IMG/VR virus record: IMGVR_UViG_3300042691_018174
From: a virus
DNA: 64,000 nucleotides
Direction: 5' to 3' (one strand)
This document shows, piece by piece, positions 10,001-59,429 of this stretch. Made by a program: the position numbers and the translations under genes. Under the pieces are notes generated by a model. It worked only from the letters and a program-made list of their open reading frames with translations. It was not told the origin of the DNA and did no database searches. Numbering within the stretch: position 1 is the stretch's first letter; each line of letters begins with the position of its first letter.

Positions 10001-13000
10001 GACTTATACTTTTTCAGGTACTGCGCAGCCTTCTACATCATCATATACGAACCCTGCAAATACTACAAACGGAGTGGGCACAGGTGCGACATTTAATGTA
10101 ACTAGATTAGGTAACACTTATTCGTTAGTTACTTTAACCAACGCAGGTGACAACACTAGAACAGCTAAAAGTTTTAATGTATTTGGCAGCACAAACATAT
10201 CAATCACTGAATCTAAGTATGGTGGCTCATCATTAAAAATATTTAATCAGTTGGCACCATCTACAGCTGACAGTTATGTGCAAGTAGCAGCCAATTCAGA
10301 TTTTGATTTTGGAACTGCACCATTTACTATAGAGTTTGATATTTTTAAAGTAGGTACTGGCGCCAACCAAACTATTTTAGATATGAGACAAGCAGAACCT
10401 GACACAGGTTTGTTGTTAGGTATTGATGCTACTGAGCATTTATATATTTTCTTAAATGGTTCAATAGTAGCTACATCAACTAATCCTCTTTCTGCTAACA
10501 CATGGCATCATATTGAAATATCTTCTACTACACGAACTGTGTCAGGCACCACAAGAATTTTTGTAGATGGAGTAGTGGAAGCTAGTTTTACTGATACAAC
10601 TAATTACGGTTCAAGTTATTCTACAGTTCCTATGATCATAGGAGCAAACTATACTGGTGCTGGTGACGGCTTCAGAGGATATATTGAAGAATTTAGGGTT
10701 TCTACTAGCACTGCGAGACATACATCAGCTTATACAGCGCCAACATCAGAATTTTTACACGATTCTAATACTGTAATGTTGCTACATTTTAATGGTCAAG
10801 ACGGGTCGACTGTTATAGATGATGATTTTGGCGGATATAAGACAGGTGACTTAGTAACTATACTAGGTTCTAATTTAGGTGGTACTAATACCACAAATGA
10901 TTTAACCATCACAATAACTTCGACTACTATTGGTAAAATTAGTACGTTTAATTGGGCAGGCGCCGCATCAGACGTATCACAATATAATGCAGTTTCAGTA
11001 GCAAATGTATCTGGACAAGGAAGTGGGTTAACATTTAATATAACACAAAACGGAACTGTATACGAAAACATATCTACAGATAATGAAGGATCTAGTTACG
11101 TAGTCACTGATAGAATACGAATTTCTGGAACTGCGTTAGGTGGAGCAACACCTGCAAATGATATAATTATTAGAATTACTTCAGCAAGTTCAACTGGTGT
11201 TGTAGGAACTTTTGAAATATTATCTGGTACTGCGGCAGCAAGTACTGATACCTATAATGCTGTGACCACTGCGTCTGTTGAAAGTCCTGGTTCAGGAGTA
11301 ATATTAACAGTATCAAAAGAAGCGGGTTCATATGCTATAGATTCTTTCGATAATGGTGGTTCTGGATATAAAGTAGGAAACAGACTAAAAATTGTAGGTA
11401 ATTTTCTATCTGGAGCACCAGTATTACATGATGCATTAGTAACAGTTCTCACTGTGGATGGCACTGGCGCAATCACAGATGCGTCTATATCAGGTACTGC
11501 CAGCGGCGGTGAAACTATTGATTTTTATTCAACAATTACTTTATCAGATCCAATAGCATCAACCATTCCCACTAATGCAATTTTAAATTTTAGTGCTATT
11601 GCTAAAATTCAAGTGACTTTTGACAACTTCCATGGTTTAGTTCCAGGCAGTGCATTGATTATTCAAATTACTTCTGGCGGTTTAAATCAAAATCTCGCTG
11701 CAGGAAACTTTTACGTTGAGGAAGTACCAGAACCAAATATAATTAGGTACACTGCACGAGCTCAAGGATCTATTAGTGAAGGTGGTTTAATTGGCAAAGT
11801 ATATTCTAGAACTGATGCGTTCTTCGTTCACAGACCATTCGACGGGGGAGTTCAGTTAGGCACTGGCGGACCACAACATGCTGCTCAAGCCATACGTATG
11901 AGTAAAAATTACATTCGTTATCAATCTGGTAAAGGTTTGATGTATACCACAGGATGTTTATTTGCTCCAAGCTATGATTTGTCCTCAGCTACAGCAGACG
12001 GACTTGATTCTGGAAGTATAATAACTTTCCAAACAGATGATATTGATCATGGTTTACAAATTGGTGCCGAAGTTAGAATTCTCGGAGTAGCTACCAGCGG
12101 ATATAATAATACATACACTGTATCAAATATTATAGATGAAAAAACGTTTCAAGTTGAAGCAGTGTCAAGATTAGGGTCTAAAGTAGCAGAACTTGATGTT
12201 GCTCAAGTTTCTCTATATCAATGGAGCGGTGCTACGGTCAGGGCTGGTTGTTTTGATGAACAAAATGGAATGTTTTGGCAGTATGATGGACAGAAAATCG
12301 CCGTTGGCATTAGATCCGCTACTTTCCAATTAGCAGGAACAGCCACTGCGATTCCGGATTCGAATTTAATAACAGGACTTGGCACTAGATTTAGAGATCA
12401 GTTGAACGCAGGAGATAAAATTGTAATTAAAGGTATGACTCATACAGTAAGTCATGTAATTAATCAAACAACAATGTATATTACTCCTGACTTTAGAGGT
12501 GCGGTAACTGTTGGAAAAATTAAAATTTGTAAAATTGTTGATAGATTATTCTACCAAGAAGAATGGAACAGAGACAGGGCAGATGGCACTGGGCCTAGCG
12601 GCTATAAAATTGATGTTACAAAAATGCAGATGATCGGTATTCAATATACTTGGTACGGTGCAGGTTTCATTGATTGGATGTTGCGTGGCAAAGAAGGTAA
12701 CTTCTTATTTGTTCATAGAGTTAGAAACAATAACGTTAATACTGAAGCATTCATGAGAACTGCTAACTTACCAGTTCGTTATGAGGTCATAAATGACGGA
12801 GCATTAAGTAAATTAACGTCAAATATTACTAACACCAGTACTATTCTTCCAGTAGAAGATACTAGTAACTTCCCATCAAGTGGTGTAGTTTATGTTGATA
12901 ATGAATTGATTAGTTACACTGGAAAATCTTCTAGTACTTTAACAGGATTAACTAGATCGTCGGCACTACAGAACTTTGTTGCAGGCGCAGTTAGAACATA

Positions 13001-51034: not shown

Positions 51035-51615
51035 ATTTCCACCAAGGTCAGTTCAGATTCACGACCCATGGTTCCCCGGAACTGTGTGTTAAAGCTCAGA
51101 GTGATGCGTCTCCGATCCGTGTGATTCACAGGCACAGCATGCGGTATCCAGCTGGGAAATAAGATCAACTCGCCACGATTTACAGTGATCACTTCTACAT
51201 CTCTAAGCTGACTGCGTTCTCCCAATTGATAGTTGCCCGAAACATTGCTGTGGAACTCTATATAGTTAGGTCCCTCAGTGAGATAGTATACTCCGCTGAC
51301 TGCACTGTTTAAATGTCTATGCTGATGATGACTGCTGCCCGGTTCATTGAAATTCAACCAACTCTGCGTGATAGCTAGTTCAGCAGTGGTCACATCCAAT
51401 ACCTGTTCACAGTACTGCTGTAGACTGCTGTTTATATGATCTCGTAGCTGATGGAAGTTATCATAACAGTTCAAAATCCTAGACTCTTCACTGGTACGAT
51501 TATAGGTATTGGTTCTACTGCGCTGAAAACAGTAGCTTAACACTGAATCTATATTGGGGAAATGCCTAGCCGGAAATCTAGCCATGGGCACTGAGAGTAA
51601 TGACTGTATATGCAT
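51031..51615 (-). CDS. putative 2OG-Fe(II) oxygenase (TIGR02466-like)
   Basis: QSWLN, HRH.NS.VSGVYY, LILFPSW..H.V, RITLSFN. Confidence 0.88.
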   Translation of the reverse strand: MHIQSLLSVPMARFPARHFPNIDSVLSYCFQRSRTNTYNRTSEESRILNCYDNFHQLRDHINSSLQQYCEQVLDVTTAELAITQSWLNFNEPGSSHHQHRHLNSAVSGVYYLTEGPNYIEFHSNVSGNYQLGERSQLRDVEVITVNRGELILFPSWIPHAVPVNHTDRRRITLSFNTQFRGTMGRESELTLVEI

Positions 51616-52083: not shown

Positions 52084-52401
52084 TTAATATCCACAGCCCC
52101 TGACGTCGCTGTTCAGTGACGGCTTCAACTGGGCTATCAACTCTCGCTCACGAGCATGTGCCGCAGCCTTGCCACGCACGATCTCTAAAGGGCGTATGTC
52201 TATAAGCTCCTTGCTGGCTAGTGTGCGCAGAGCTTGGCATAGTAGCCAACCCTTCTGCTCCACTGTGGCTCTGTAGTAGTGCTTATGGGCACGGCGTTGT
52301 AGACTGTGCAACACTGTCTTGTCTTTGTATGTGATACCAATGTAGCTCTGCTCATCTACACGGATCTCGTATATGATATGATTGCGTAGTTTAACGGACA
52401 T
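52084..52401 (-). CDS. GIY-YIG nuclease domain protein
   Basis: IIY...YIG, R..H, RERELI..LKPSLN; ATG after GGAG. Confidence 0.8.
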   Translation of the reverse strand: MSVKLRNHIIYEIRVDEQSYIGITYKDKTVLHSLQRRAHKHYYRATVEQKGWLLCQALRTLASKELIDIRPLEIVRGKAAAHARERELIAQLKPSLNSDVRGCGY

Positions 52402-52432
52402 AGTGTGCTCCAGTGCTTTAGTGTATGTGTGT

Positions 52433-52461
52433 AGTATAGCATCAAAGGTATTACCTGTCAA
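52433..52461 (-). promoter_or_regulatory. early sigma70 promoter P1
   Basis: TTGACA-17-TATACT. Confidence 0.9.
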
Positions 52462-53218: not shown

Positions 53219-53247
53219 ATAATAGCACAGGGTTTAGGTTTTGTCAA
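53219..53247 (-). promoter_or_regulatory. early sigma70 promoter P3
   Basis: TTGACA-17-TATTAT. Confidence 0.9.
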
Positions 53248-53249
53248 CC

Positions 53250-53461
53250 GAATTCTTGTCTAAGGCCACGCTGTTCCACGGTCGCCCCTTAGCGGAGTTG
53301 TTGCCCTGTCCCGACACTAATCAGCATCTGCTACGTAGTGTCCACGCCGCTGGGTTGTCTGAGGTTCTTAGGCCTCGCTGTCGGTGCCCCAGCCACCGGG
53401 ATTCTATCGTTTACCACACGCTACTTTCAGGAAAGTAGTAACCGGAATCTCTTATAACTAT
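53250..53461 (-). ncRNA. candidate structured ncRNA 1 (~210 nt)
   Basis: Own promoter, no RBS or ORF, at least 6 helices plus a pseudoknot. Confidence 0.7.
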
Positions 53462-53467
53462 GACTGT

Positions 53468-53496
53468 ATTGTACAGTCATTTCTCTCAGCTGTCAA
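53468..53496 (-). promoter_or_regulatory. early sigma70 promoter P4 (drives ncRNA 1)
   Basis: TTGACA-17-TACAAT; -10 lies inside ATGACTGTA-TTG-TACAGTCAT palindrome. Confidence 0.85.
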
Positions 53497-57682: not shown

Positions 57683-57889
57683 GGTGCTTCCCCCCTGCGG
57701 CGGTAATTGTAGCACATCAAGTGGCGATCTTTACATCGCACACCATCACACATGCCTTCCACCCGCTCCCCGACCAGGAGTGATTCTCGCATTGCCAGCG
57801 CCAGTTCGGTATGACTGGAACCACCCTCGACTGCCACTGTCGCTTCTCATCGTGCGGGTCACACTATCCGGAGGCACCGGAACGTTCTG
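57683..57889 (-). ncRNA. candidate structured ncRNA 2 (~205 nt)
   Basis: GC-rich gap in a dense array with multiple helices and long-range pairings. Confidence 0.65.

Positions 57890-59351: not shown

Positions 59352-59429
<78 letters not shown>

Follow-up and report, generated by a model that had tools for sequence, protein, structure and literature searches.

What is transcribed from a strong promoter that no gene follows? The window analysed here, a stretch of 64,000 nucleotides of viral DNA, derives from a giant myovirus encoding tail sheath, baseplate proteins and a DnaB helicase; on the basis of the helicase, its nearest cultured relatives are the PA5oct-like Pseudomonas phages and Agrobacterium phage Atu_ph07 (~52% amino acid identity). 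The minus strand of the segment 52.4–63.5 kb has 19 sigma-70 promoters close to consensus; in 18 cases a ribosome site of the AAGGAG type and a start codon follow within 24–51 nt. The sole exception, TTGACA-17-TACAAT at 53496-53468, shows neither a Shine-Dalgarno sequence nor an ORF within ~50 nt. A preliminary description of this DNA had singled it out as the only promoter of the array lacking both, which our count bears out, and had proposed that it drives a pseudoknotted non-coding RNA of ~210 nt placed in an early-cassette slot.

Judging from the promoter spacing, transcription would start near 53461. The perfect 9-bp inverted repeat that had been noticed over the -10 box is present, once in the whole window compared with a chance expectation of 0.06; it was not seen at the promoters of the homologues described below and is particular to this phage. 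Directly past the RNA, a consensus promoter and a ribosome site of its own serve a gene for a 62-aa membrane protein (53188-53000, minus strand). No terminator is predicted 3' of the RNA or between the RNA and this gene, and the 3' end of the RNA would therefore have to come from processing of a read-through transcript.

Several features of the neighbourhood deserve a record. The spacer of the RNA promoter, CTGAGAGAAATGACTGTA (53476-53493), resembles in inverted orientation the segment 51591-51608 (17 of 18 bases), which represents the first codons of a 2OG-Fe(II) oxygenase gene at 51615, and it has GAAATGACTG in common with the region where the 62-aa gene starts (53188); recombination at a gene start may have given rise to the promoter. 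A 125-aa ORF (52084-52461, minus strand) contains IYEIRV...YIGIT, which by eye looks like the motif of GIY-YIG nucleases, and gave no Pfam match at E up to 0.01; a homologue occupies the same position in the syntenic relative L008. The slot equivalent to that of the RNA is filled in L008 by two protein genes, which indicates that its content is exchangeable. A second candidate RNA (57683-57889, minus strand) neither matches the family model presented below nor contains the GGACAGGG core and, should it be real, would be a distinct RNA.

The stretch behind the promoter is not coding, since stops interrupt all three sense frames of 53241-53470 and indels among the homologues are not multiples of three, no frame being open in any of them. 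Its G+C content, 53.6% over ~210 nt, compares with 38.7% for the window and ~47% for the array. The minimum free energy of the 218-nt transcript (-62.5 kcal/mol) does not differ from that of shuffled sequences (-64.4 +/- 4.7; z +0.40), so that helices could arise by chance; a single sequence proves nothing here, and the decision falls to homologues. Searches of the RNA stretch against Rfam 15 returned nothing at the gathering score and nothing at E up to 10, while nine homologue loci gave no match at E up to 0.1 and five tRNA-array loci gave tRNA and tmRNA only. ARAGORN predicts a single tRNA in the window, a tRNA-Met at 59352-59429, 6 kb from the RNA.

Search for homologues of the predicted RNA

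Direct DNA searches found only one contig, 99% identical. An exact 18-mer scan of IMG/VR returned this near-identical contig and three chance matches in coding DNA only, and 41 records of related phages, reached via the helicase gene, yielded at the DNA level only chance matches of 14–15 nt. The downstream 62-aa gene, whose homologues reach down to 56% identity, was used as the anchor instead, and the alignment of these homologues fetched 37 loci from IMG/VR and the JGI metagenomes. With the window RNA as query, nhmmer found matches in 18 of the 37 loci, on the strand of the gene and 1.2–2.9 kb upstream of it, with E values of 1e-14 to 1e-26. A first alignment, an RNAalifold fold and a covariance model (R1) were built in turn, and the invariant core served as a scan pattern.

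The core pattern was found in 40 IMG/VR contigs and in 0 of 185,579 species-representative prokaryote genomes. The covariance model recovered 41 full-length copies scoring 134–237 bits, 34 of them distinct, with 61–79% identity between the homologues and the window copy. The window itself (53248-53457, minus strand) matches model positions 1–211 with 178.4 bits and E 1e-51, a score that is partly circular because the window sequence is among the 10 seeds of the model; the nhmmer matches are independent support. The family signature, GGACAGGGNAACAACUC(C)(A)GC followed by the P7/P8 hairpin GGGGCGA ... CGUGGCC, is present at 53260-53311. Queried with the window RNA, a main-type homologue and a member of the sister subfamily introduced below, blastn gave no match among 50,697 cultured-phage records, and no cultured carrier is known.

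The fold and its covariation

The helices were written by hand on the window sequence (Table 1) and counted on two alignments. In a MAFFT alignment of 33 sequences, which is blind to structure, 88.6% of cells pair, against 30–42% with slid partners; 17 pairs change on both sides, and 0 of 500 shuffles reach the observed value in four of five measures. In the model-fitted alignment the corresponding figures are 87.6% against 32–45%, with 22 of 38 pairs changing on both sides, again with 0 of 500 shuffles. Many G-U pairs, among them an invariant one in P8, are compatible with the minus strand only, which identifies it as the RNA strand. We regard the stretch as almost certainly a functional structured RNA.

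Table 1. Features of the RNA locus, in window coordinates
Feature	Coordinates	Strand	Basis
-35 box TTGACA of the RNA's own promoter	53491-53496	-	promoter scan
-10 box TACAAT, 17-nt spacer	53468-53473	-	promoter scan
Perfect 9-bp inverted repeat ATGACTGTA-N3-TACAGTCAT over the -10 box	53460-53480	.	repeat count
RNA, from probable start to base before next promoter	53248-53461	-	covariance-model match 53248-53457, 178 bits
5' segment UUCCG, 5' strand of long-range pseudoknot PK3	53443-53447	-	pairs with 53274-53278
5' H-type knot: P2 CUACUUU (53432-38)/AAAGUAG (53421-27)	53421-53443	-	P2 covaries
5' H-type knot, proposed second stem: P2 loop CC (53430-31) with GG (53442-43)		-	suggested by sister subfamily
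Helix P1b: GG(U) 53413-15 with (U)CC 53399-401	53399-53415	-	covariation
Hairpin P3 CGGUG/CACCG (53394-98 with 53382-86); loop GCUGGG (53388-93), 5' strand of PK1	53382-53398	-	covariation
Variable-length hairpin P4 GAGG/CCUC (53373-76 with 53361-64)	53361-53376	-	alignment
CCCAGC, 3' strand of PK1	53349-53354	-	covariation
Helix P5 GACACUA/UAGUGUC (53336-42 with 53313-19), capped by hairpin P6 UAGC/GCUG	53313-53342	-	covariation
Near-invariant single-stranded core GGACAGGGCAACAACUCCG, signature of the whole superfamily	53293-53311	-	alignments
3' hairpin: P7 CUAAGG/CCUUAG, P8 GCG(A)C/GCGU	53260-53292	-	covariation
P8 apical loop CGUGGAACA, with UGGAA (53274-78), 3' strand of PK3		-	covariation
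A/U-rich 3' tail ACAAGAAUUCGG, without terminator	53248-53259	-	sequence
Next cassette promoter TTGACA-17-TATTAT, abutting the RNA	53219-53247	-	drives 62-aa gene

The changes are spread over the whole molecule. In homologues P2 becomes GCACUUU/AAAGUGC, the GG/CC of P1b is replaced by AAC/GUU, GAGA/UCUC or GAUU/GAUC, and the closing C-G pair of P3 is A-U in seven sequences. PK1 occurs as GCUAUG/CAUAGC, GCUAGG/CCUAGC, GCUCGG/CCGAGC and GCAG/CUGC in place of GCUGGG/CCCAGC; five of its six pairs (model-fitted alignment) or three of six (MAFFT) show compensatory change, and ~95% of cells pair. P4 varies between GAGG/CCUC, GAAG/CUUC and GAGAC/GUCUC; in many homologues it bears a long insert and reaches ~45 nt. 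The CACUA/UAGUG of P5 is exchanged for CACUG/CAGUG, AUCCCU/AGGGAU or ACAUUAUG/CAUGAUGU, while the sequence of P6 is freely variable. P7 is also found as CUUGGG/CCCAAG and CUUAGG/CCUAAG, and one C-G pair of P8 as G-C.

All seven helices listed in the preliminary description exist in the sequence where it placed them, and six have been kept by compensatory changes, namely CUACUUU/AAAGUAG, CGGUG/CACCG, the pseudoknot GCUGGG/CCCAGC, GAGG/CCUC, GACACUA/UAGUGUC and CUAAGG/CCUUAG. The seventh, GAUUC/GAAUC, has to be abandoned: its pair 13-54 forms in four of 33 sequences, and it clashes with the covarying pairing of 53413-15 with 53399-401. A helix proposed by RNAalifold (13-15/42-44, CCG/UGG) was likewise discarded, as L147, L153 and L096 covary in another register and P1b uses those bases. 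Collecting homologues, the check that had been suggested for the RNA, thus yielded 41 full-length copies and 17 compensatory pairs on the structure-blind alignment; together with the lack of an ORF, this covariation confirms the proposed pseudoknotted non-coding RNA of ~210 nt in an early-cassette slot.

Weak matches of the family model in tRNA arrays have only the 3' module in common with the window RNA, that is the core GGACAGGGUAACAACUCAG and the P7/P8 hairpin. A variant pattern written for this sister subfamily found 64 further IMG/VR contigs with 45 distinct sequences. The overall architecture is like that of the main family, while the 5' and middle sequences differ, and RNAs of the two subfamilies can share one genome (G043, G046, G047). 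Sister RNAs are ~205 nt long and lie between tRNAs (L176:1403-1609; L175:1427-1640; L153:8960-9190; loci L178-L239).

The alignment of the sister subfamily revealed coordinated changes between a pyrimidine-rich segment near the 5' end of the RNA and the purine-rich loop at the apex of P8. This long-range pairing, PK3, occurs across both subfamilies in the classes UUCCG/UGGAA (that of the window), UCCCG/CGGGA, UCCCA/UGGGA, CCUCG/UGAGG, CCCCG/UGGGG, UACCC/GGGUA and AUCCC/GGGAU. Its mean best run is 4.51, against 3.90 +/- 0.10 when the loops are dealt to other sequences (0 of 2000 shuffles); one class of the sister subfamily, with the loop GUGGUG, fits PK3 poorly, with 3 bp only. In the window the pairings of PK1 and PK3 are both intact, the latter joining 53443-47 with 53274-78. 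Read by eye, the alignment also shows an H-type knot at the 5' end of the sister RNAs, with GCAG/CUGC, CGGG/CCCG or CGGGC/GCCCG as one stem and CCCUU/AAGGG, CCCAU/AUGGG or CUCCU/AGGAG as the other. For the subfamily of the window we propose, from the same reading, that the GG at 53442-43 pairs with the invariant CC of the P2 loop, which would explain why only the last two bases of this loop vary.

Genomic setting of the family

In all 24 further loci, which belong to other phages, the RNA is found inside large tRNA arrays and on the strand of the tRNAs. A tRNA abuts the RNA in at least eight of these 24 loci, often within 0–5 nt, adjoining its 5' side in L135, L136, L147 and L153 and its 3' side in L134, L141, L144 and L159; a tail similar in length to that of the window copy extends to the 5' end of the next tRNA. 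The window RNA is not in a tRNA array and sits between two protein cassettes, and nine other members also lie outside arrays, so that a tRNA-array location typifies the family without defining it. These nine are the closest syntenic relatives; their RNA lacks a promoter of its own and begins ~5 or ~115 nt past the stop codon of a gene for an 83-aa protein. The window copy is nearest to the tRNA-array copies (78–79% identity, against 62–74% for the copies adjacent to the 83-aa gene), and a promoter directly 5' of the RNA is also present in two other lineages, L150 and L161. The orientation of the RNA is always that of the flanking tRNAs or genes. Three complete genomes (364, 355 and 214 kb) hold one full-length copy each, and two of the three a second, weak partial match of 18–21 bits, which in the 364-kb genome is the sister RNA in a tRNA array.

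The 83-aa family (MFKLDE...HGSPFDRGSADSYY...NERFGDKKNWD), which has its own promoter and is encoded just 5' of the RNA (L095:1335-1586; L097:1315-1566; L096:452-700; L124:762-1013), gave no Pfam or PHROG match. An obligate partnership between the RNA and this upstream gene was considered and rejected, since the window lacks this gene and the gene itself often occurs where the RNA is missing. Some of these loci carry an extra non-coding insert of ~115 nt between gene and RNA (L097:1567-1681, L105, L120), with a hairpin GUUGG...CCAAC and an end ...CCACCA, in which ARAGORN finds no tRNA; the insert may represent one more RNA cassette or the remnant of a tRNA. In the tRNA arrays of three loci (L158:5555-5663, L155, L131), a promoter is followed by another conserved non-coding stretch of ~100 nt (GCAGCAGTAAAGAGCAGAGCC...) and then by the RNA.

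In the arrays themselves, ARAGORN assigns CUA and UUA anticodons, of the amber and ochre suppressor type, to tRNAs at L137:5204-5278 and 10349-10422, L163:9231-9305 and L172:2826-2899, which hints at stop-codon suppression or recoding in the related giant phages. A tmRNA lies in the tRNA array of L150 (8311-8690); it matches the betaproteobacterial and permuted tmRNA models with 137 bits each and may indicate which group hosts these phages.

Known systems and possible function

The preliminary description could assign the RNA to no known family, and Rfam 15 gives nothing either; the RNA is uncatalogued there and represents a new family within a known kind, the structured RNAs of phage tRNA islands. 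The copy in the window is an unusual member, placed outside the array and driven by a promoter. The species 1 and 2 RNAs of T4 (rnaC, 139 nt; rnaD, 119 nt) are likewise small, stable, non-coding and encoded on the tRNA strand of a phage tRNA cluster, from which they are released by tRNA-processing enzymes. However, they do not reach the length of the present RNA, and one of them terminates in a T-arm sequence resembling that of tRNAs, whereas the present family has a multi-pseudoknot fold and no tRNA-like arm. Run with filters off on the T4 region 69800-72600, model R1 scored 2.6 bits at best, so that homology was rejected and the two are analogues by context only. The manA RNA motif, a curated Rfam family, is also borne by phages, adjoins tRNAs and falls into a similar size class, but Rfam gives no manA match in the window, the nine homologue loci or the five tRNA-array loci. 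The put RNAs of HK022 are likewise folded, located just past an early phage promoter and devoid of a terminator of their own. Yet they are ~70 nt long, consist of two stem-loops and act in cis on the transcribing polymerase as antiterminators, whereas the present RNA has ~200 nt, lies mostly between tRNAs and has no predicted array terminators to override.

GOLLD and ROOL share with the present RNA a phage origin, a place near or within tRNA islands and pseudoknotted folds backed by covariation; we know of no protein partner and no function for either. They are roughly three to four times larger, and at the thresholds used their Rfam models gave no match. GOLLD, often >800 nt, combines a conserved 3' part with a variable 5' part, and both RNAs form cages of 8 to 14 subunits (bioRxiv 10.1101/2024.12.08.627333). 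A 2023 IMG/VR-wide catalogue of candidate structured RNAs lists motifs of 29–151 nt (PMC10690425) and may hold fragments of the present RNA. Two further candidates were rejected. A template RNA of the retron/DRT type has no counterpart in an RVT_1 match, either in the three complete carrier genomes or in the near-identical contig. For a type III antitoxin RNA (ToxI-like), 53248-53461 contains no direct repeats, and downstream lies the 62-aa membrane protein with its own promoter. Of the candidate roles put forward in the preliminary description (decoy or antitoxin mimic, ribozyme, regulator), the antitoxin-like one has nothing in its favour, tandem repeats and a partner toxin gene both being absent, and a regulator in cis is contradicted by the 24 tRNA-array loci; this tRNA context turns the question of function towards tRNA and translation.

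The reading that we favour, with a probability of roughly 0.55, is that of a folded RNA acting in trans on a partner from the world of tRNA and translation, with the phage tRNA operon as the home of the family. The members would be compact RNAs of ~200 nt with several pseudoknots, made by giant (jumbo) phages mostly from a tRNA operon, and the array copies would presumably be excised by the enzymes that mature tRNAs. The copy in the window, with its consensus sigma-70 promoter, would be made by the host RNA polymerase immediately after infection, as an immediate-early product. Its partner might be a protein or an RNA, possibly a host defence nuclease directed against tRNA. We infer transcription, the start site, processing, the action in trans and the nature of the partner from the features assembled here. 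The conserved features are kept away from tRNAs, in the window and in the nine loci with the 83-aa gene, which points to a function independent of neighbours and thus exerted in trans. Similarly, an exchangeable position, a constant sequence and fold, and the single full-length copy of every complete genome examined (three) together speak against a role in cis and for one in trans. The home in tRNA operons suggests tRNA or translation biology. Phage tRNA operons are widely viewed as counter-measures to tRNA-targeting defences, and by analogy the RNA could have a role in counter-defence. No consistent pattern of complementarity emerged when the invariant core was scanned against the tRNAs that these phages themselves encode, and antisense targeting of these tRNAs by the core was rejected for want of a recurrent target. 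It also speaks against the favoured reading that, with no terminator behind it, the RNA of this phage might just stay attached as the leading portion of the next gene's mRNA.

Other explanations have to be weighed against this one. A DNA-level signal (an operator, a recombination site or a decayed gene) with helices formed by chance would fit the unremarkable folding energy of the single sequence, the palindrome on the promoter and the short matches between the promoter spacer and gene starts elsewhere in the window. Such a signal does not account for compensatory changes in 17–22 pairs where slid-partner controls reach only 30–45% pairing, for strand-specific G-U pairs, for the absence of an open frame in every homologue or for an orientation constant relative to the neighbours; the covariation effectively refutes it, and we give it practically no chance. 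The RNA might instead act in cis, as a riboswitch-like sensor or a stabiliser in the leader of the 62-aa gene, transcribed by read-through across an interval devoid of terminators. Homologues of that gene do lie 1.2–2.9 kb downstream of the RNA in 18 of the 37 loci fetched via the gene. The gene has, however, its own promoter and ribosome site just past the RNA, and the distances, intervening genes and downstream neighbours (various tRNAs, promoters, different genes) change from locus to locus. Moreover, 24 loci are flanked by tRNAs with no coding gene downstream, and the window copy is closest to those, which leaves a leader function very improbable.

A ribozyme, cleaving itself to punctuate polycistronic transcripts or taking part in tRNA processing or repair, would agree with a modelled fold in which at least three pseudoknots link 5' end, centre and 3' hairpin in a single globule. 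It would also agree with the tRNA-operon context and with the invariance of the 19-nt core and several junctions over 33 sequences that are 61–79% identical overall, such invariance being typical of catalytic or ligand-binding RNAs. Nevertheless, no ribozyme family of Rfam 15 gives a match, even with a limit as high as E 10, most of the self-cleaving ribozymes known are <100 nt in length against ~200 nt here, no conserved cleavage-site signature can be named, and the flanking tRNAs already supply processing sites; we consider a ribozyme unlikely. A bolder version extends to the whole superfamily, which might be a new catalytic or tRNA-recognising RNA, either a ribozyme working on tRNAs or a device capturing tRNAs or a tRNA-targeting defence enzyme. 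The fold closed by a pseudoknot from 5' to 3' end and the invariant 19-nt core would then form the active or binding site, and the immediate-early promoter would be there because the RNA is needed before the tRNAs; this too strikes us as doubtful. By analogy with GOLLD and ROOL, with which it shares its niche (bioRxiv 10.1101/2024.12.08.627333), the RNA could be a small multimer, a structural scaffold or cage made of RNA only and binding no single specific partner, and its invariant 5' CCGG is self-complementary. With ~200 nt it reaches only a third to a quarter of their length, neither its sequence nor its model resembles theirs, and the 5' CCGG is already engaged within the molecule in PK3 and S1, so that an assembly of this kind seems very unlikely.

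A trans-acting RNA with a partner in tRNA or translation biology remains our preferred reading. To our knowledge, none of the previously described RNAs of phage tRNA islands, neither T4 rnaC and rnaD after fifty years nor GOLLD and ROOL, has been assigned a function. The family reported here is one more class of this kind, far smaller and very well conserved, with ~100 metagenomic instances over two subfamilies and a secondary structure supported pair by pair, the three pseudoknots included. Its length of ~200 nt brings the RNA within reach of chemical probing, of crystallography or cryo-EM, and of pull-downs. The copy in the window has retained all the conserved features outside a tRNA array and under a strong early promoter of its own, which argues for an autonomous function in trans at the start of infection. 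Should a tRNA-directed defence or a component of translation prove to be its partner, this RNA would open a new chapter in RNA-based counter-defence or host takeover by phages.
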